From an uncultured Chloroflexia bacterium (GTDB lineage Bacteria > Chloroflexota > Ktedonobacteria > Ktedonobacterales > JADMIN01), in contig CAVRAI010000015.1 in NCBI GenBank assembly GCA_963718915.1, forward strand, positions 930,001 through 962,000: a stretch of DNA of 32,000 nucleotides. Reading direction: 5' to 3'. Positions 8,150 to 27,756 of the stretch are shown in pieces (position 1 is the first letter of the stretch; each line of letters opens with the position of its first letter). Both the position numbers and the translations under genes were made by a program. Below the pieces are notes generated by a model that saw nothing but the letters and a program-made list of their open reading frames with translations, searched no databases and was not told the origin of the DNA.

Positions 8150-9016
8150 GTGATGAACACAAGCGGGCGTCAGATGGCGCAGACCGTCGGCATCCTGTAT
8201 CAGGAACATTCCGAGGGCGCTGGTGAGCTGGCGAAGACTCTGGCCGCGCGCCTGCGGGCTGAGGGGCGCGCCGTCTGGCAGGAGGCGCTGCAACGGCACG
8301 ACGCGCAGGTGAATGACCAGCTTGTCGGAACGGATATCGTGCTAGTGCTTGGCGGCGATGGCTCTCTGCTCTCCGCCGCCCGTATGTGCGCTGAGGCGAG
8401 CATTCCGCTGCTCGGCATCAATTTTGGCCGGGTCGGCTTTCTGACCGAACTGGAACCGGGCGAAGTTGACGAGAAGTTGCCATTCTATTTCAACGGCGAC
8501 TATTGGATCGACGAGCGAGCGATGCTCCAGGCGGAGGTGGATGCGGGCGATATCCAGCACCGCTTCATCGCGCTCAATGATATGGTGGTGGTGCGAGGCG
8601 CGTTGCCGCGGGTCATTCGCATGAAAGTATGGCTCGACGGCCATTTCTACAACACGACGGTGGCCGATGGTATCATCGTCTCCACCGCCACCGGGTCAAC
8701 CGCCTATAATCTCGCCGCTGGCGGGCCGATTCTCCATCCGCAGGTACGCAGCAGCGTGCTGACACCCATCGCGCCGCATCTGGCGACAGACCGATCGCTG
8801 ATTCTGGAACCGAATGCCGTCACCACCCTGGAGCTGCAGCCCGGATCCGACGGAGCGATTCTCTCTGCGGATGGCCAGATCAACCTGACGCTGAATGTTG
8901 GCGCGCAGGTGACGATTCGCAGTTCTCAATACGTCACGCGCTTTCTGCGGCGGCGCCCTCCGACCTATTTCTACCGCATTTTGTCGGCGAAATTGCAGGA
9001 TAACCTCTCAGGATAG
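8150..9016 (+). CDS. nadK: NAD+ kinase
   Basis: 288 aa. VLVLGGDGSLL, NFGRVGFLTE, NDMVV and STATGSTAYNLAAGGPILHP are canonical NadK motifs. The start is GTG 8150 or ATG 8153. Confidence 0.93.
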   Translation: MMNTSGRQMAQTVGILYQEHSEGAGELAKTLAARLRAEGRAVWQEALQRHDAQVNDQLVGTDIVLVLGGDGSLLSAARMCAEASIPLLGINFGRVGFLTELEPGEVDEKLPFYFNGDYWIDERAMLQAEVDAGDIQHRFIALNDMVVVRGALPRVIRMKVWLDGHFYNTTVADGIIVSTATGSTAYNLAAGGPILHPQVRSSVLTPIAPHLATDRSLILEPNAVTTLELQPGSDGAILSADGQINLTLNVGAQVTIRSSQYVTRFLRRRPPTYFYRILSAKLQDNLSG

Positions 9017-17647: not shown

Positions 17648-19401
17648 TCACGCCTCGATGGCGTAGACATAGCCGTCGTCCGCGCCAACATAGACCAAGC
17701 CGTTCGCTGCCACAGGAGGGGATGCGCCGTCCAGGTACTCGTACATCAGGTTGCCGTTTACCTGGAAGGTCCATTGCTTCGCGCCCGTGGCAGGGTCGAA
17801 CGCGAAAACGTTGTTGTCAGCTTCAGAGACGTAGAGCACTCCATTGGCCACTGTCAACCTGGGTACTCCATCGCCACTAGCGCCATACTTCCAGCGCCGG
17901 GTGCCTGTCTGGGTATCAAGCCCATAGATAGATTCGTTGAATGCTTCCATGCCGACACAGACTACGCCGTTCACCACATATGGCATAGAAAATGTGGTGA
18001 GGATACCTGACGCCAACTGGGAACTCCACCGTTTAACGCCAGTCAATGCATCGAGCGCATAGAAATTCATATCTTCCGAGCCGAAGTACACCATCCCGTT
18101 AGCGATTGCTGGGGAATAAGTCCATACAGAGACTGAGTCATAGGGTATCGAAAAGATCCATCGCTGCGAGCCGGTGTTGGCGTCAATGGCGCATACCTCG
18201 TAATTCATTGTACAGGCGTAGACGACACCGTTCGCCACTGCTGGCACGTTATACGAGACTGGCTGTGTGCCAGTAGCGAAGGTCCATCGCTTCGTGCCGC
18301 GCTGAGCATCAAGCGCATAGAGGTTCCCATCGTTCGATTGGAGGTAGACGACGCCATTGGCCACGTAATGGCACTGGGTGCACTCTCATCCCCGCCGACG
18401 TGGTAACTCCATCGCTTGGTTCCAGCAGAAGCGTCGAGCGCGTAGAGCATTCCTCCACCGGTGCTGACATACACGACACCGTCCGCTACCGCAGGCTGGG
18501 AGACCCTGCCATCTGCCTGAAATGTCCAACGTCTGGCGCCGGTTTGTGCGTCGAGCGCACACACCCTGGAGACATCTGTGCCGACATAGACCATTCCGTT
18601 CGCCACAGCTGGCGCGGATGGTTTACCTCCCACTGGAGAGCGCCAACGCAGCCGAAATGTGCCGATAGCCTGAGCATGCGAATACCAGGCAAAACCGCCA
18701 ATAGCCGACGCTCCGACCACAGCAGCGCCCGCTCCTATCAGAAAATTGCGCCGTGATATTCCGCGTCTGGCAGGCGGCGCGGACTCGTCTGACTCCGTGG
18801 ATTTCTCTTGCGCTGGATCGTTTGCGCCAGGGGCTTTATGACTCGGACTCTTTGCCTGCTGATTGTCTGGCTGATCCTTCGGCACAGCATGGCCGCTGGG
18901 TTTTGCATCGTGGGCGGGAGCAGCAGATGGTTGCGGCGCAACAGGTTGCGGCTGAGGCGACGGGGGTATTGGCAGTACTGGCGGCGGAGCGGCTGGTGTC
19001 AGCATCAGCCCAAGCACGCGAGCGATGTTGGTAAGAGCAAACGCGTAGTCTTTGGTGGCGTCAATACGATTGTAAGTGGTCCACAGGGCAGGAATATCAT
19101 GGAGCGGAACCGGCCTCGCCAGCACAATGATCGGCGCTCGCATAAACCCCTGCTTATAGCGAACCAGCGCCGCATCCATCTCGTCGGGCACCCAGCGAGA
19201 AGTGAGCGCGTCCGGGGTCAGGACAAGCACCAGCACATCGCGCGCGTTGATCGCTTCATTGATTCTCTGGACGAAATTGCCTGAGCCGATGTGCGTCGCG
19301 TCTAGCCACACATCCGCCCCTGTGCTGCGTAGATCGTCCGCCAGCCGTTCGGCGAACGCTGAATCCACATTGGAATGGCTGATGAACACCCGTAGCGTCA
19401 T
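17648..19401 (-). pseudogene. TIR domain, Pro-rich linker, TM segment and 8-bladed PQQ-like beta-propeller protein, split by a 1-nt frame shift near 18364-18366
   Basis: Track ORFs 18205..19401 and 17648..18364. N-terminus RVFISHSNVDSAFAERLADDLRSTGADVWLD...LTSRWVPDEMDAAL is a TIR fold with the conserved Glu. Next come a Pro/Gln linker and RRGISRRNFLIGAGAAVVGASAIGGFAWY (TM segment). Eight ..P.VANG.VYV......YALDA..G..RW blades follow. The repeat pattern continues in another frame exactly at ...SAPSAIT|VANGVVYLQSNDGNLYALDAQ. Confidence 0.85.
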
Positions 19402-19541: not shown

Positions 19542-19570
19542 TTGACGGCCAGGAACGTTTGTGCTATTGT
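19542..19570 (+). promoter_or_regulatory. Candidate promoter for the DnaQ-UvrC-like gene
   Basis: TTGACG (19542-19547), N17 including an extended -10 TGc, then TATTGT (19565-19570). It lies ~40 nt before ATG 19612, which has a GAGGTGG Shine-Dalgarno. Confidence 0.5.
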
Positions 19571-19611
19571 CCGCCTACTACAACTCCCACTTGAATCAGC
19601 CGAGGTGGCCC

Positions 19612-21764
19612 ATGACGACGCCCGAAGAACGGAAGCTCAAGAGCTTTCAGCGCCTGATTGCGCCCTCAGCCGACGCCACCGATGATGTTGATGGCGAAGA
19701 TAGGGACGAGACAGACAATTCCGCCGACGATGCTATCCCCCAGCGACACCGCGAGTTGCTGAGGCGCGCGCGCGACGTGCTCCGCGAGCAGGGCAGTGCG
19801 ATGTCCGCGGCTGCTCTCGCCCAGCAGGTGTTTGCCACGGGCGAGGGAACTTCAGGGGGCGTCTGGATACCGCTACTCAACCAGTTGCTGAGCGCGTCTT
19901 CAGCCTTTGCCTGCGATAGCGCCGGAAACTGGCGGTTGACTGTGTGGGACGCCACGATACAGCGGCTCGAAGAGATCGAGTTTGTGGCGCTGGATGTGGA
20001 ATCCACCGGGCTGGCTCCCGGACGTCATCGGTTGCTGGAGGTCGGCGCTGTCATCGTACGTGGTGGCGAGCCGGGCGCGCACTTTCAGCGGCTTATCAAT
20101 CCCAGTCGGCGCATTCCCCAGTTCATTACGCGCTTCACTGGTATTAGCGAGGCGATGGTCAAGCGGGCGGGCAGCGCCGCCGTCGTCTTGCCGCGGCTGC
20201 ACGAGTTTGTGGACAGCCGCCCAATCGTTGGGCATAACATTGGCTTCGACCTTGGCTTCCTCAGCTATGAGACTCAGCATGCCTCACTCGACTTTGACTT
20301 CCCATTGGAAGGGATAGATACTATCGCGCTCGCACGTCGCTATCTGACCGGCATGCGACGCGCCAGCCTCGACCGTGTCGCCCTTGCCCTCCATCTGCCC
20401 ATTCACTCCCGCCACCGCGCCCTGCCCGATGCGTTGCTCACGGCGCAGGTGTTCGCGCTGCTGCTGGCGCGCGCCCGCGAGGAGGGCTGTGAGACGCTGG
20501 ATGATCTGCGCCAGGCGATCAGCGGCGTCGCTCCGGTACGGTCAAGCCTGCCCGCTGGTCGCCCGACTGGCAGCATGTATCTCAACCCCGCCTGGCGGCA
20601 GAACTTCCCCTCAAAGCCCGGCGTCTATCTGATGAAGGATGCCGATGGCGAGGTCATCTACGTCGGCAAGGCCAAAGTGTTACGTGATCGACTGGCATCC
20701 TACTACAATCAGCCGCTTGGCTACACGCGCAAGATGGACGGCCTGCTGCAGAGCGTGCAGCAGATTGAGACGCGCGTGCTTGGCTCGGAACTGGAGGCGC
20801 TATTGGTGGAGTCGCGGCTGATCAAAGAGCTACAGCCGCGTTATAACGTCCAGCTACGCAACTACGAGTTGTATCCTTTCATCAAGCTGGATATCCAGCA
20901 TCCGTATCCGCGCTTCTACGCCTCCCGCGATGTCAGCGCCGATGGCGCGCGCTACTTTGGCCCTTTTCGCAGCACGCGCATTGTCAACGCGACGCTGGAG
21001 CTTATTCAGAAAGTGTTTCCCATACGCACCTGCACTCGGAGCCTGCCGCCCGCCGCGAAGCCAAGCGATCCGTGTCTGCGCTATCACCTGAAACGCTGCC
21101 CCGGCCCCTGTCGCGGCGAGTTATCGGCGAGGCGGCGGAGGCCTATAACGAGGCGATTGCCGAGGCGTGCGCTTTTCTGGGCGGCGAGCGCGCCGATCTG
21201 ATTGACCGGCTGAAGCGCGAGATGTTCGAGGCGGCGGCACGCCAGGATTTCGAGCGGGCAGCGCGACTGCGCGACGCGCTCAAAGACGCCGATCAGGTGC
21301 TGCTGGGCCAGCGGTTGGTGACGGGCGCGGTCGAGTCGAATAATCTGCTGATCGTCTATCCCTCGGCAGAGCCGGATCATATCGAGATTTTTCTCATCCG
21401 CCATGGGCGGCTGCTGGCGCAACGGCGCGTCGGCCAGGCAGGCGACCCGGTTCGCGAGGAACTCCGCGCGCTGGTGGATGAGGCGGCGGCGCTGGGCACG
21501 CCACCCTCGCGGGTCGGACGCGCCGAGGTAGATCAGATCAACATCATTGCCCGGTGGATTTCACACCACAGCGAGGATGACGCCCGCGCATTCTTCCGGC
21601 TGCCGCGTGAGCTAGACAAACCTGATGAGGTTGAATCTTTCATCGCGCAGGTTGCGGAGACCGCGCTGACCAGCCTGATGGCGAGCAATGGCGAAGAATC
21701 CGATGGCGGCAATGGCGATAGTATCCTCAGCGAAAATCCAGATAGTGATGTGTCTGAGGTCTGA
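19612..21764 (+). pseudogene. DnaQ-type 3'-5' exonuclease fused to a UvrC N-terminal (GIY-YIG plus UVR) Cho-like nuclease, split by a 1-nt frame shift near 21118-21120
   Basis: Track ORFs 19561..21201 and 21072..21764. FVALDVESTGL...GHNIGFDLGFL...HRALPDALLTAQVF are DEDDh exonuclease motifs. GVYLMKDADGEVIYVGKAKVLRDRLASY...LEALLVESRLIKELQPRYN is GIY-YIG. CLRYHLKRCPGPCRGE then continues in the -1 frame as VIGEAAEAYNEAIAEACAFLGG...DFERAARLRDAL (UVR). There is no EndoV/HhH C-terminal half. Confidence 0.85.
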
Positions 21765-24694: not shown

Positions 24695-24933
24695 AAGTCC
24701 GCCGCCCTTCTTTCCAGGCTAATCCCGCGCAGCTTGCCCCTCAAGCTGCCCTTGCCCTACGACACGGTAGCCAACCGTACGACTTACCCCGTCTGCACGA
24801 CGCGAGACTGATATCACCACCCCATGCCTGGTTGATGTCCAGCATAGAGTTTAGCGCACTTTGAGCACGGCCTATTGTATCACCTGGCATGCGGAACGCG
24901 AAACTGCCCGCATCCTGTTATGGATCGATGGCT

Positions 24934-25329
24934 TCATGATGCGGCCATGTGAACGGCGGTTGCCATCAGGTGCTCCAGCATCGCCGTGGGATCGTGGCAC
25001 AGTCCGGCGTGGGCGGGCGAGGTCTGTATCACGGTGCTACGCGGCGAGACCAACCAGTGGAACCGCTCGCGCTGCGTCAGCTGCCCGATTGGCCCGGAAC
25101 CTGCCCCACCATGACAGATGCGCTGAATAGCCTCCAGATAGCTCGTGATCTCGGCAGGATTGGCGCCAGGCGCTAGCGCCAGCAGCCGCGCCTCATCCAG
25201 TGATATTCGCGCATCGAGGAATGACCGTGCGCGGCAATAGAGCATGATGCCGGCGTTGATGAACTCGCCGCGTTCTACATGCGGCACGACGCGAATGACC
25301 GCATATTCAAACGAGCTGCGTCCGCGCAT
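24934..25329 (-). CDS. DUF3037-like hypothetical protein (131 aa)
   Basis: MRGRSSFEYAVIRVVPHVERGEFINAGIMLYCRARSFLDARISLDE... resembles DUF3037 as I remember it. The ATG at 25329 is preceded by GAGGAGG-N6 and lies 23 nt inside the upstream kinase gene. The rest of the 272-aa track ORF is out-of-frame overlap with that gene. Confidence 0.7.
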   Translation of the reverse strand: MRGRSSFEYAVIRVVPHVERGEFINAGIMLYCRARSFLDARISLDEARLLALAPGANPAEITSYLEAIQRICHGGAGSGPIGQLTQRERFHWLVSPRSTVIQTSPAHAGLCHDPTAMLEHLMATAVHMAAS

Positions 25330-26089
25330 GCAGCGCCTCCTCGACGAAAAGCTCAGACGCATCCCGGCGCGCGGTAAGGTATCCCAGATAAGCGGCGCGC
25401 TGCTCGTCGGCGTTTCCAATGGCCGGATCATCGGCCAGCCAGTCGGTGGGAACCTCGGCGACGATATTGGCCAGTGTTTCATCGGACAGGCGCGCTCGCA
25501 GGGCCGCGTCCACCTCAGCCAGTCGCGTTGCCCACTGAAGCAACACATGGTTGTGGATCGTGGGGAATGGCCGTTCCCGCTGCAGTGTCGCCCGATCCCA
25601 GGCATGGTGAAAATAGAACGACGCGCCATGGTCGATGAGCCAGAGCCTGCCATGCCAGGACAGGATATTGGGGTTGCGCGCGGTGCGGTCAGGATTGGTG
25701 ATATAGGCGTCGAACCAGACGATTCCCGACGCGAGTACTGGGTCAATCTCACGGGACACCGTTGGATCGAACATGAACGATCCCGGCAGATAGTCCAGCG
25801 CGAGGTTGAGTCCCACGCTCGCTTTCATGGGAATCTGAATTTCAGGGTCGCGTTCGGCGCGCCCAAACGCCTCATCAAGCTCGACGAAGACCAGTTCAGG
25901 AACAGGAAGACCAAGCGCTCGCCCGATCTCGCCGCCAAGTAGCTCCGCCACTAACGCCTTCGGCCCCTGGCCCGCGCCACGAAACTTGACGACGTACATG
26001 CCCTCGTCGTCCGCCTCGATAATCGCTGGCACCGAGCCGCCCTCCCGCAACGGCTCCACGTAGCGGGTTGCGATCACCGTCCGTAACAT
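25307..26089 (-). CDS. Short HipA-like / PI3-4-kinase-fold protein kinase (260 aa)
   Basis: MLRTVIATRYVEPLREGGSVPAIIEADDEGMYVVKFRGAGQGPKALVAELL...AYITNPDRTARNPNILSWHGRLWLIDHGASFYFHH. This gives a Gly-rich loop with Lys, a D-x-x-x-x-N catalytic loop and D-H-G. Start uncertain: ATG 26089 has no Shine-Dalgarno. The in-frame ATG 26152 overlaps the SARP stop as TGATG. Confidence 0.7.
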   Translation of the reverse strand: MLRTVIATRYVEPLREGGSVPAIIEADDEGMYVVKFRGAGQGPKALVAELLGGEIGRALGLPVPELVFVELDEAFGRAERDPEIQIPMKASVGLNLALDYLPGSFMFDPTVSREIDPVLASGIVWFDAYITNPDRTARNPNILSWHGRLWLIDHGASFYFHHAWDRATLQRERPFPTIHNHVLLQWATRLAEVDAALRARLSDETLANIVAEVPTDWLADDPAIGNADEQRAAYLGYLTARRDASELFVEEALHARTQLV

Positions 26090-26117
26090 GAAGTAACCTG
26101 TTCTAATGCTGAACTGC

Positions 26118-26142
26118 CTCGCCACTGTCTCGCCACTGTCTC
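26118..26142. repeat. 11-bp tandem direct repeat ctcgccactgt x2 plus a partial third unit (minus strand ACAGTGGCGAG ACAGTGGCGAG GCAGT)
   Basis: Read directly: 26118-26128, 26129-26139, then ctc. With the flanking actgc at 26113-26117 this gives three (A/G)CAGT pentads spaced 11 bp apart. It lies between the SARP stop (26152) and kinase ATG 26089. Confidence 0.85.
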
Positions 26143-26151
26143 TTGATAGCA

Positions 26152-27756
26152 TCACATGCACGACTGACGTATGAAACGCTCGACCTCGTCCCGAAGCGTT
26201 TGCGTGTCGCCGACCCACCACCAGTGGTCGTCGCCAGGCAGTTCGACATAGCGTGCCTGTGGGATATGACTGGCAAGATATCGTCCAGCCTCCACTGGGA
26301 CGCTCCTGTCACCACGGCGATGGAGAATCAGTGTGGGAACATGGAGGTATGGCAGTTCGGATCGAACGTCAGTGTCTCGAATGCCCTCCAGAATGGCTTG
26401 CACCGCGCCGGGACTTGCGGCCAGACGTTGTGTCTGCGCCCACCACTGGCGAAATCGTTCATCGTGCGCTCGCGTCGGCGAAAAGTACTCCAGATTAACT
26501 GGCCCGCCCCAGCCTTTCACTAACTTCTCCACCCAGCGCTGAAACTGATCCGCCGTCACCCCCCACGGATAGTCGACGCTAAAAGAGCCTTTCGCCTGAC
26601 CGCCGTATATCACCAGACCCGCGACATGCTCAGGGCGCCGTACCGCGGTGATGATGCCGACGGTTGCCCCTTCGGAGACAGCAAATACAACCACACGCGA
26701 TGCTCCCACCGCCCTCATGACTGCCTGCGCATCATCGACGTGTTGAGCGGATGTGACTGGCGCACGGACTCGATCAGATAAGCCCATCCCTCGCTTATCA
26801 TAAACGATAATGCGTGCGAATTTCCCAAGCTGGTGATAGAAGCGCGCGAGCTCCGGCTCCTCCCAGAGCTGCTCGATATGCGAGATGAATCCGCCAATAT
26901 GCAAGAGATCAATCGGGCCTTCTCCTATGGTCTGGTAGGCTAAATAAGCATCTCCACTCCGAACGTACTGCGTCTGAGATCGGGTTGGCGTCTGGTAGGA
27001 CGGAGCCTCAATCGTGCGATAGAGATTCTCTGTCTCCTCGCCTGGCTGCACGCCCAGGAGTTCGGCGAGCATGCGCCTGCATGTCTCGTACTGGCGTCTG
27101 GCTGCGGCAAATTGACCACCCATTGCATACAACCTGATTAGGGCGCGATGGGCCGGTTCGTGGTCAGGTTCACGGCTGAGCCAGAGTCGCGCCATCTCAA
27201 TACCGTGCTCCCAGTCGCCGAGGCGCTCATAGGAGGCGGTAAGCAATGCCAGGATGCGTAGATACTCCGCGCGCAATTCTTCCCGCGCGAAAAACTGCCA
27301 CTCATCGAACATCGGGCAGCCGGGCAGTGAGAATCCCGCCAGGAAATCGTCGGTGTAGAAAGTGATGGCCTCTCGCATAGTAGCGAGGCAGGAAGCTATT
27401 GGAGCATTCGGCGGATGCTCGTGATCTGCGCATAGGCGCGCCATATTCAGGAAATGCTGGGTATCTCGCCAGACAGCGACATCATGACGGAGACTCACCG
27501 TGCGCGGCGTAATATCCAGGAGATTCTCGCCAACGTCGGACTTGAGTTGATACAGGGTACGTCGCAACGCGCCAAAAGCCCCACTTTGATCCAACTCTGG
27601 CCAGAACAGCGTCGCAAGCGCCATGCGGGTGTGTTCGCGAGACGTTTCGGCGAGATAAATCAGGAGAGCCATCTCCTTCTGCAAGCGCATCGTGATGGGG
27701 CGCCCGGCGTATTCGACCCGTGGTGATCCAAGCAGGTACAGTGAGATTTGGCTCAA
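26152..27756 (-). CDS. SARP-family transcriptional regulator (OmpR-type winged helix plus BTAD) fused to a C-terminal alpha/beta-hydrolase domain
   Basis: 534 aa, TTG start after GGAGGT-N8. ISLYLLGSPRVEYAGRPITMRLQKEMALLIYLA...; BTAD FAREELRAEYLRILALL...AHRALIRLYAMGGQFAAARRQYETCRRMLAELLGVQPGEET. Then YVRSGDAYLAYQTIGEGPIDLLHIGGFISH...YDKRGMGLSDR...FAVSEGA...HRRGDRSVP...PGDDHWWW, an apparently intact Ser/Asp/His triad. Confidence 0.8.
   Translation of the reverse strand: MSQISLYLLGSPRVEYAGRPITMRLQKEMALLIYLAETSREHTRMALATLFWPELDQSGAFGALRRTLYQLKSDVGENLLDITPRTVSLRHDVAVWRDTQHFLNMARLCADHEHPPNAPIASCLATMREAITFYTDDFLAGFSLPGCPMFDEWQFFAREELRAEYLRILALLTASYERLGDWEHGIEMARLWLSREPDHEPAHRALIRLYAMGGQFAAARRQYETCRRMLAELLGVQPGEETENLYRTIEAPSYQTPTRSQTQYVRSGDAYLAYQTIGEGPIDLLHIGGFISHIEQLWEEPELARFYHQLGKFARIIVYDKRGMGLSDRVRAPVTSAQHVDDAQAVMRAVGASRVVVFAVSEGATVGIITAVRRPEHVAGLVIYGGQAKGSFSVDYPWGVTADQFQRWVEKLVKGWGGPVNLEYFSPTRAHDERFRQWWAQTQRLAASPGAVQAILEGIRDTDVRSELPYLHVPTLILHRRGDRSVPVEAGRYLASHIPQARYVELPGDDHWWWVGDTQTLRDEVERFIRQSCM

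Follow-up and report, generated by a model that had tools for sequence, protein, structure and literature searches.

A translationally coupled HipA_2 kinase/DUF3037 gene pair in a Ktedonobacteria genome: a putative chromosomal, short-partner branch of the HipAD/PDC-M66 family

Background

Experimental work on gene pairs of the HipA_2/DUF3037 family is very recent (2025-2026) and describes them as an anti-phage system resembling toxin-antitoxin pairs. We analysed a gene pair of this kind found in a 32,000-nucleotide stretch of DNA (referred to as the window) from an uncultured bacterium of the class Ktedonobacteria, phylum Chloroflexota (GenBank assembly GCA_963718915.1, contig CAVRAI010000015.1, positions 930,001 to 962,000). 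It consists of a gene for a 260-amino acid (aa) kinase and an overlapping gene for a 131-aa DUF3037 protein.

In the Retron-Sda1 operon, defence against phage Bas51 was lost when the kinase gene was deleted, and loss of the DUF3037 gene proved toxic. The retron reverse transcriptase and non-coding RNA were dispensable. The authors' conclusion was that the DUF3037 protein neutralises a toxic kinase (PMC12548924). In the DefensePredictor study, the anti-phage system DS-6 was validated and renamed HipAD. It consists of the HipA-related kinase DS-6A, a catalytic mutant of which lost defence, and of DS-6B, which carries DUF3037 and DUF1829. AlphaFold3 predicted an A-B complex with interface predicted template-modelling score (ipTM) of 0.76-0.79, and a weaker DNA binding by B (PMC13092281). 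Details of HipAD used below were drawn from the DefensePredictor paper (PMC13092281) and from GenBank annotation of phage PhiR5_1, where a "HipA toxin" of 249 aa and a "HipD antitoxin" of 275 aa occupy a moron slot beside cI. Among more remote kinase systems, hipJS and hipIN have the antitoxin gene downstream of the kinase gene and a partner without DNA-binding domain (PMC8262856).

A preliminary description of the locus, made from the sequence without database searches, had proposed a kinase-plus-partner module with no recognisable antitoxin and no known experimental description. The latter two points have to be revised. The family corresponds to the PADLOC candidate defence system PDC-M66 and was validated both as DS-6/HipAD and in the Retron-Sda1 operon. 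Since deletion of the DUF3037 gene is toxic in homologues (PMC12548924), and since the equivalent protein of PhiR5_1 is annotated as HipD antitoxin, the DUF3037 protein is the likely missing antitoxin.

Organization of the gene pair

The locus was re-read from the minus strand of the window, positions 24800-26400. The kinase open reading frame (ORF) starts with ATG at 26089 and stops with TGA at 25309..25307; the DUF3037 ORF starts with ATG at 25329 and stops with TGA at 24936..24934 (Table 1). The kinase sequence includes VVKFRGAGQGPKAL, NPDRTARNPNIL and LIDHG, in agreement with the catalytic-loop and D-x-G motifs noticed previously, and the DUF3037 protein begins with MRGRSSFEYAVIRVVPHVERGEFINAGIMLYC and includes FEYAVIRVVPHVERGEFINAGIMLYC. 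An alternative, GTG-started kinase ORF extends to 26221 and would run into the upstream gene. This start was rejected, as it is unused in homologues, all of which begin with MLRTV.

To compare the organization, 84 chromosomal loci were collected, 80 of which were kept from a scan of one genome per species with at least 600 matching species. In all 84 chromosomal loci, the kinase gene is directly followed by a DUF3037 ORF of the same strand, and a DUF3037 gene is also the next one downstream in all 47 phage or viral loci. The overlap of exactly 23 nt, proposed earlier together with translational coupling and borne out by the coordinates, is found in 64 of the 84 loci from about seven phyla; the remaining overlaps range from 4 to 53 nt, some of them possibly due to heuristic choice of start codons. 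The Shine-Dalgarno (SD) sequence of the DUF3037 gene (25342..25336) is separated from the ATG by a spacer of 6 nt, and the kinase F-V-E-E-A motif from which it arises is conserved in SD-using phyla. As overlap and internal SD couple DUF3037 translation to the end of the kinase gene, the partner would be made whenever the kinase is made.

Bacteroidota-type loci (L024, L028, L034, L039, L045, L046, L053, L054, L059, L063, L064, L069-L071, L073, L077, L080, L082) carry AAAGAAG or similar sequence, encoding kinase F-V-K-E-A, in place of GAGGAGG. This fits the weak SD use in Bacteroidota. Since these loci retain the 23-nt overlap despite the lost SD, overlap length seems to be constrained by the termini of both proteins rather than by the SD. 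Judged from its sequence, the locus is a real, translationally coupled two-gene module. Purifying selection on both genes (see below) and recurrence in 84 of 84 chromosomal loci place the arrangement far beyond chance.

The kinase

The kinase belongs to Pfam family HipA_2 (PF20613; E 3.3e-22, 79.4 bits with cutoff of 27), with residues 11-224 aligned to profile positions 5-214 of 240. It also matches PADLOC PDC-M66A (E 1.8e-28, residues 1-222 on profile positions 9-244 of 270) and PHROG 3162. No NCBIfam model matched the kinase or the DUF3037 protein.

Conservation was scored in an alignment of 117 homologues, in which K35, E49, D134, N139 and D153 are all invariant. An AlphaFold2 (AF2) model built from these homologues is of high quality (predicted local distance difference test score, pLDDT, 91.2; predicted template-modelling score, pTM, 0.91) and shows the order beta1 (4-13), E-G-G-S loop, beta2, beta3 up to K35, helix with E49, D134-x4-N139 loop and D153-H-G. 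The E-G-G-S loop is located between model strands 4-13 and 22-26, and phage HipA carries E-G-S-T at the same place. Invariant residues and model together support a catalytically intact, active kinase. By analogy with S150 of HipA and the serines of HipT (PMC8262856), S19 of this loop may be regarded as a candidate autophosphorylation site.

We wondered how far the preliminary assignment to a HipA / PI3-4-kinase fold holds. At the level of clan and fold it does: PF20613 belongs to Pfam clan CL0016, and the protein displays fold, beta3 lysine, D-x4-N and D-x-G of protein-kinase-like (PKL) enzymes. Foldseek comparison of the model with PDB retrieved 34 kinases at E <= 1e-3. The best was Helicobacter pylori CtkA (3akk; TM 0.60, E 2e-5), followed by PI4KIIalpha (TM 0.54, E 2e-4), Fam20/Golgi casein kinase and CotH; among viral models, the neighbours are PI3K/PI4K-like phage kinases. 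CtkA, which we take to be a protein Ser/Thr kinase, was deposited in PDB as a proinflammatory kinase. Similarity to canonical HipA was not detected at sequence level. Canonical HipA is absent from the top 50 Foldseek PDB matches, and no Couple_hipA, HipA_N or HipA_C Pfam match was found (HipA_C at E <= 0.1), which agrees with the earlier remark that the protein is far shorter than HipA and devoid of its N-terminal domains. Searches of PDB sequences with phmmer and profiles gave no match, no HipA or HipT chain included, and hhalign of the kinase alignment with E. coli HipA (HipA sequence checked against 2WIU) gave a probability of 0.8%. A sequence-level link was thus rejected, with no significant match by phmmer, profile or hhalign. 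In further PDB searches, phage HipA_2 and the HipA kinase core reached neither each other nor CtkA. As no sequence link was found, the term "HipA-like" rests on Pfam clan curation and fold.

Four homologues (P0190, P0194, P0219, P0222) bear the nr name "aminotransferase class I and II", which finds no support in Pfam or fold and is a propagated misannotation.

The DUF3037 partner

The partner matches Pfam DUF3037 (PF11236) over its full length (1-118/118; E 6e-44, 149.5 bits with cutoff of 22.6), so that both proteins fall above Pfam cutoffs into the families expected from the preliminary description. It also matches PHROG 5137 and PADLOC PDC-M66B (E 1.6e-10), the latter just at profile positions 3-72 of 281.

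A signature near the N-terminus (Table 1) is at least 85% conserved in a set of 95 diverse DUF3037 proteins, to which phage HipD and a 117-aa short form from a Campylobacter phage also belong. On the contrary, the P-R-S-T-V-I-Q-T-S block of the window protein is restricted to its own branch in this comparison. Invariant polar residues of the branch are R13, E19, R20, E22, N25, R89, H91, W92, R97, S98, T99, Q102, S104 and H107. No solved relative was found by phmmer or profile search of PDB sequences. An AF2 model from 24 sequences is poor (pLDDT 53); it suggests an N-terminal beta-hairpin followed by helices and is unfit for fold comparison.

Exhaustive profile search yielded 2,532 DUF3037 clusters at 50% identity. 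Among the best 150 of them, median length is 133 aa and just 7 have 200 aa or more; a short protein without further domain is the prevailing architecture of DUF3037. A search with the HipD domain for more divergent DUF3037 sequences gave 14 proteins. Partners in 45 of the 47 phage or viral loci measure 275-286 aa. As to the C-terminal domain of the long form, DS-6B has DUF1829 there, and that of Sda1 is similar to a DNA-binding protein of retrons. Sequence comparison indicates that DUF3037 is the constant, kinase-associated module and that this C-terminal domain is accessory.

Two further proteins touch upon this relationship. In Campylobacter phage vB_CJ12660_3PH123 (L085 2944-4072), a divergent 262-aa HipA_2 kinase gene directly follows a repressor gene and precedes the gene for the 117-aa DUF3037 protein; short partners are therefore not exclusive to chromosomes. 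In the metagenomic protein P0347 (234 aa), the C-terminal part of the kinase (profile 142-222) is fused in frame to a full DUF3037 domain. The fusion is either genuine, in which case it would speak for physical contact of the two proteins, or it stems from a frameshift or faulty assembly where the genes overlap.

Table 1. Features of the HipA_2/DUF3037 locus (positions refer to the window)
Feature	Position	Strand	Remarks
Kinase gene	25307..26089	-	HipA_2-family atypical Ser/Thr protein kinase, 260 aa, core kinase domain alone
E16-G17-G18-S19 glycine-rich loop, between beta1 and beta2	26033..26044	-	all four invariant in 117 homologues
K35, predicted ATP-anchoring lysine, end of beta3	25985..25987	-	invariant in 117; kept in phage HipA; model strand 31-35
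Catalytic loop D134-R-T-A-R-N139-P-N141 (D-x4-N)	25667..25690	-	D134, R135, N139, N141 invariant in 117; D, N in phage HipA
D153-H154-G155, metal-binding D-x-G, DFG equivalent	25625..25633	-	D153, G155 invariant; H154 at least 90%; LIDH in phage HipA
DUF3037 gene	24934..25329	-	stand-alone DUF3037 protein, 131 aa, predicted kinase-neutralising partner (short HipD-like antitoxin)
DUF3037 signature Y9-x3-R13-x2-P16-x5-E22-F-x-N25-x-G27	25249..25305	-	predicted beta-hairpin; strands 10-14, 26-30 in low-confidence model
Overlap of kinase 3' end and DUF3037 5' end, 23 nt	25307..25329	-	translational coupling; read from sequence
Shine-Dalgarno GAGGAGG of DUF3037 gene	25336..25342	-	encoded by codons of kinase F-V-E-E-A motif

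Comparison with described systems

The window pair shares with the HipAD/DS-6/PDC-M66/Sda1 pair the HipA_2 and DUF3037 families, the kinase-first order, overlapping genes and lack of HipB, as well as the catalytic motifs and length of the kinase (about 250-260 aa) and the N-terminal DUF3037 signature. In alignment with PhiR5_1 HipA (28% identity over residues 14-221, E 1e-16), the E-G-[GS]-[ST] loop, K35, E49, D134, N139, N141 and D153-H154 coincide. Of PhiR5_1 HipD, the first 126 residues can be aligned to the window DUF3037 protein (17% identity, E 9e-7). HipD runs about 150 residues beyond the alignment, and this region is missing from the window protein.

The differences are nevertheless considerable. 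Besides the low identity of both proteins, HipD/DS-6B has about 275 aa with a C-terminal DUF1829 or DNA-binding region, whereas the window partner is DUF3037 alone. HipAD is prophage-borne and occurs in 45 viral contigs, the window branch in none; the latter is much more conserved and more widely distributed. The overlap measures 4 nt as annotated in PhiR5_1, as opposed to 23 nt in the window. Measured against PDC-M66, the locus has component A and the overlapping gene order, while a full component B and carriage by a mobile element, prophage or defence island were not found. These sequence comparisons argue that the window pair is a distinct chromosomal, short-partner branch of the HipAD/PDC-M66 family.

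More distant systems share less. HipBST, hipJS and hipIN likewise combine a core-domain kinase lacking HipA N-subdomain-1 with a small non-DNA-binding partner as presumed inhibitor. The window kinase, however, lies outside Pfam HipA_C, has no detectable HipA similarity, and is not accompanied by a HipB-like third gene. Similarity of DUF3037 to the HipS-like N-subdomain of HipA (residues 1-129) was not detected by hhalign either (probability 0.2%), this comparison being of low power (effective sequence number, Neff, 1.9; single-sequence template). With canonical HipBA of E. coli K-12, the pair has in common the Pfam clan, merging into one family by KINtaro, and the logic of kinase toxin and protein inhibitor. 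It differs in length of the kinase (440 aa in HipA), which lacks N-terminal subdomains and HipA_C match and has its glycine-rich loop already at residues 16-19, and in the inhibitor, which is unrelated to HipB and encoded downstream rather than upstream. CtkA (PDB 3akj, 3akk, 3akl) and type II PI4-kinase are the closest solved folds to the kinase model, but sequence identity is 12-15% and no DUF3037-type partner is known for them; the resemblance is one of fold alone.

Distribution and evolution

Genomes representing at least 600 species, from about seven phyla, contain the branch. A search with the kinase gave at least 8,000 matches, the best 120 of which have about 260 aa, are at least 61% identical, and come from Chloroflexota, Acidobacteriota, Myxococcota and Gammaproteobacteria; the 80 loci kept from the scan additionally include Bacteroidota, Cyanobacteria and Betaproteobacteria. 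Search with DUF3037 gave 2,858 matches, of which the best 120 have 114-147 aa and at least 58% identity.

Divergence of kinase and partner is correlated across loci (r = 0.71). The nearest neighbour belongs to the same phylum for 69 of 80 kinases, and mean identity amounts to 67.5% within phyla and 59.8% between them. In a syntenic relative (L002), with identities of 83% for the kinase, 77% for DUF3037 and 72-94% for adjacent genes, ratios of nonsynonymous to synonymous substitution rates (dN/dS) are 0.12 for the kinase, 0.23 for DUF3037, 0.05 for YebC, 0.12 for RuvC and 0.13 for the SARP gene. Both genes of the pair are under purifying selection.

Isolates of Enhygromyxa salina (L016) and Pseudoxanthomonas sp. 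PXM02 (L025), members of different phyla, have kinases 92% identical, indicating recent inter-phylum transfer. A metagenome-assembled genome named "Janthinobacterium lividum" (L028) contains a Bacteroidota-type copy (81% identity), due to transfer or mis-binning. Finally, one 11,826-bp contig labelled Nitrososphaerota archaeon encodes a pair (P0037 and P0135) 78-81% identical to the window pair; this contig is most likely mis-binned.

Genomic context

The flanks are as previously described. Upstream on the same strand is a gene for a protein with BTAD (SARP) and alpha/beta-hydrolase domains (27756..26152), and yebC, ruvC and ruvA follow downstream. L002 shows the same order of SARP-hydrolase gene, pair, yebC, ruvC and ruvA. 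More distant Ktedonobacteria have the pair at other genome positions. The SARP-hydrolase gene, mentioned in the preliminary description, is indeed directly upstream here. As it stands beside the pair just in close relatives, its adjacency is lineage-specific synteny, and it was rejected as component of the system. Among window genes are further those for biotin carboxylase, NAD kinase, RecN and glycosyltransferases, housekeeping genes as are ruvA, ruvC and yebC. No gene with helix-turn-helix (HTH) motif is adjacent to the pair in the window, which confirms that a HipB-like gene is missing.

A third conserved gene was not found by all-against-all clustering of 660 neighbouring ORFs, where no cluster extended beyond 12 of 83 loci, and the members of this largest one differ in side and strand. 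Similarly, no consistent defence-island context was found among neighbours across 80 genomes, 136 immediate neighbours being scanned. The single strong neighbour of defence type is a Mokosh-like helicase, present in four scanned neighbours; its cluster spans five Sphingobacteriaceae loci. In these loci (L039, L045, L054, L071, L077; Pedobacter/Sphingobacteriaceae), an approximately 637-aa superfamily 1 (SF1) helicase gene (AAA_11/AAA_12) lies about 80 nt downstream of DUF3037 on the same strand. The helicase matches PADLOC Mokosh MkoA (E 2.9e-97) and MkoC and stands beside the pair in that lineage alone. Tblastn searches of phages and plasmids gave two tiers of matches, with identities of 45-54% on megaplasmids or chromids and 23-32% on phages.

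Simple scans found no sigma-70-like promoter or intrinsic terminator at the locus, and no RNA element was found there by Rfam at E <= 1. The DUF3037-yebC intergenic region (24740-24890, minus strand) is 82% identical to the same region in L002. It contains a long conserved block opening with extended -10-like TGATACAAT at 24874-24882 (minus strand) and having no Rfam match. This block is plausibly yebC's own promoter and leader, in which case the pair would not be obligatorily co-transcribed with yebC-ruvCA. A small ORF at 24872-24937 (minus strand) overlaps the DUF3037 stop codon (ATGA), and its L002 counterpart (8393-8539) was called as a 48-aa gene. It is not conserved, having 21 codons in the window and disruption by indels, and is probably no gene.

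Two other window genes may be mentioned. At 18208-19401 (minus strand), about 5.5 kb from the pair, a 398-aa protein with N-terminal TIR domain (PF13676, E 2.2e-21) and PQQ/beta-propeller repeats is encoded. L002 carries a FemAB gene in its place; the TIR gene may be a variable insertion, possibly related to immunity. At 19561-21198 (plus strand) lies a gene for a 546-aa fusion of RNase_T (DnaQ-like) exonuclease and GIY-YIG nuclease, conserved in L002, where it also has UvrC_M and UVR domains.

Possible function of the pair

The analysis establishes family membership, intact catalytic residues, a kinase fold, obligate pairing, coupling, purifying selection and lack of a third conserved gene. 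By analogy with the distant homologues studied, we infer kinase toxicity, its neutralisation by DUF3037, a trigger, a target and a possible defence role. With moderate confidence, we regard the locus as a self-contained two-gene HipA_2/DUF3037 module (PDC-M66, DS-6, HipAD) in which a kinase effector is held in check by DUF3037. The kinase would be a growth-arresting effector phosphorylating an essential protein. DUF3037 would bind the kinase and keep it inactive, most likely via its universally conserved N-terminal hairpin motif, and phage infection or stress might be the trigger that relieves this inhibition. Since the window partner has no C-terminal DNA-binding or DUF1829 domain, it probably does not autoregulate the genes. 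For the order of kinase and then antitoxin with a non-DNA-binding partner, hipJS and hipIN may serve as precedent.

A number of observations speak against an ordinary toxin-antitoxin or defence role of the branch, namely its conservation, breadth and lack of mobility, and they lend weight to a different explanation, which we consider possible yet clearly less probable. According to it, the pair is a conserved cellular kinase/DUF3037 regulatory module, inherited largely vertically and acting on a conserved endogenous target. Both proteins might form an obligate heterocomplex, with DUF3037 as regulatory, substrate-recruiting or active subunit or as phospho-acceptor via its P-R-S-T. The module might control growth, dormancy or stress response in soil bacteria, and phage-borne HipAD would be exapted offshoots derived by addition of a DNA-binding domain. 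For toxin-antitoxin or defence genes, a cross-phylum identity of 57-65% is out of the ordinary. Both proteins keep a constant length (260 and about 130 aa), and the alignment of 117 sequences has about 45 invariant kinase columns, that of 24 sequences 88. Presence in so many species-representative genomes, the taxonomic signal in nearest neighbours, synteny in the close relative and dN/dS values that resemble those of neighbouring housekeeping genes such as RuvC point in the same direction. Neither branch kinase nor branch DUF3037 has a relative in 2.9 million viral contigs, although phage-type HipA, used as positive control, was found in 45 contigs of the same collection. The pair is not anomalous in composition (GC content of 62.4%, compared with 61.4% of the window). 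Its window neighbours are housekeeping genes, and the immediate neighbours scanned in other genomes are ordinary and heterogeneous (MFS transporters, Na/H exchangers, dehydrogenases, response regulators). The many invariant polar residues of DUF3037, with invariant P-R-S-T as possible phospho-acceptor, suggest a role beyond that of a passive inhibitor, and the short stand-alone form prevails among DUF3037 proteins. As regards the toxin-antitoxin reading, the experimentally studied homologues are distant and have a two-domain partner, and the PDC-M66B profile is matched over its first quarter alone. Against a purely cellular module stand the sole experimental data on the family, which point to toxin-antitoxin-like defence, and the genomic position, unconserved beyond close relatives even inside Ktedonobacteria. 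Inter-phylum transfer occurs, as in the Enhygromyxa/Pseudoxanthomonas case, the Sphingobacteriaceae pair adjoins a Mokosh-like helicase, and conserved functional partner genes that would point to a pathway were not found.

Metabolites, antibiotics or lipids are the substrates of many enzymes with a protein-kinase-like fold. A small-molecule kinase with accessory subunit, modifying or detoxifying such a compound, would agree with the enzyme-typical level of conservation and with the presence of PI4KIIalpha, a lipid kinase, beside other atypical kinases among the nearest folds; the legacy aminotransferase label shows that function assignment never had a basis. We consider this improbable, given that no metabolic, transporter or resistance gene recurs beside the pair, that homologues act as toxin and antitoxin and that the best structural match is CtkA, with its deposited designation. 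Still further down in probability, and very unlikely, is a three-gene operon in which the pair is an output of, or co-regulated with, the upstream SARP (BTAD) alpha/beta-hydrolase regulator. The genes are on the same strand, separated by 62 nt with no terminator-like site found between them, and L002 and L003, both close relatives, have the same arrangement, but no SARP gene is beside the pair in 80 other genomes examined, other Ktedonobacteria included.

Implications

The prophage systems studied so far represent a minority form of the family. The dominant form is a chromosomal pair with DUF3037-only partner, widespread in soil bacteria (Chloroflexota, Acidobacteriota, Myxococcota, Bacteroidota, Cyanobacteria, Proteobacteria), conserved like housekeeping enzymes and with no relative in the viral contigs searched. 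Should this chromosomal form serve in defence or as a toxin-antitoxin pair, its stability would be unusual for such systems, and the DUF3037 domain alone would suffice for kinase control. If it is not, it represents a widespread kinase signalling module. Either way, the 131-aa partner defines a minimal kinase-control domain, and the invariant residues of both proteins are direct targets for mutagenesis.

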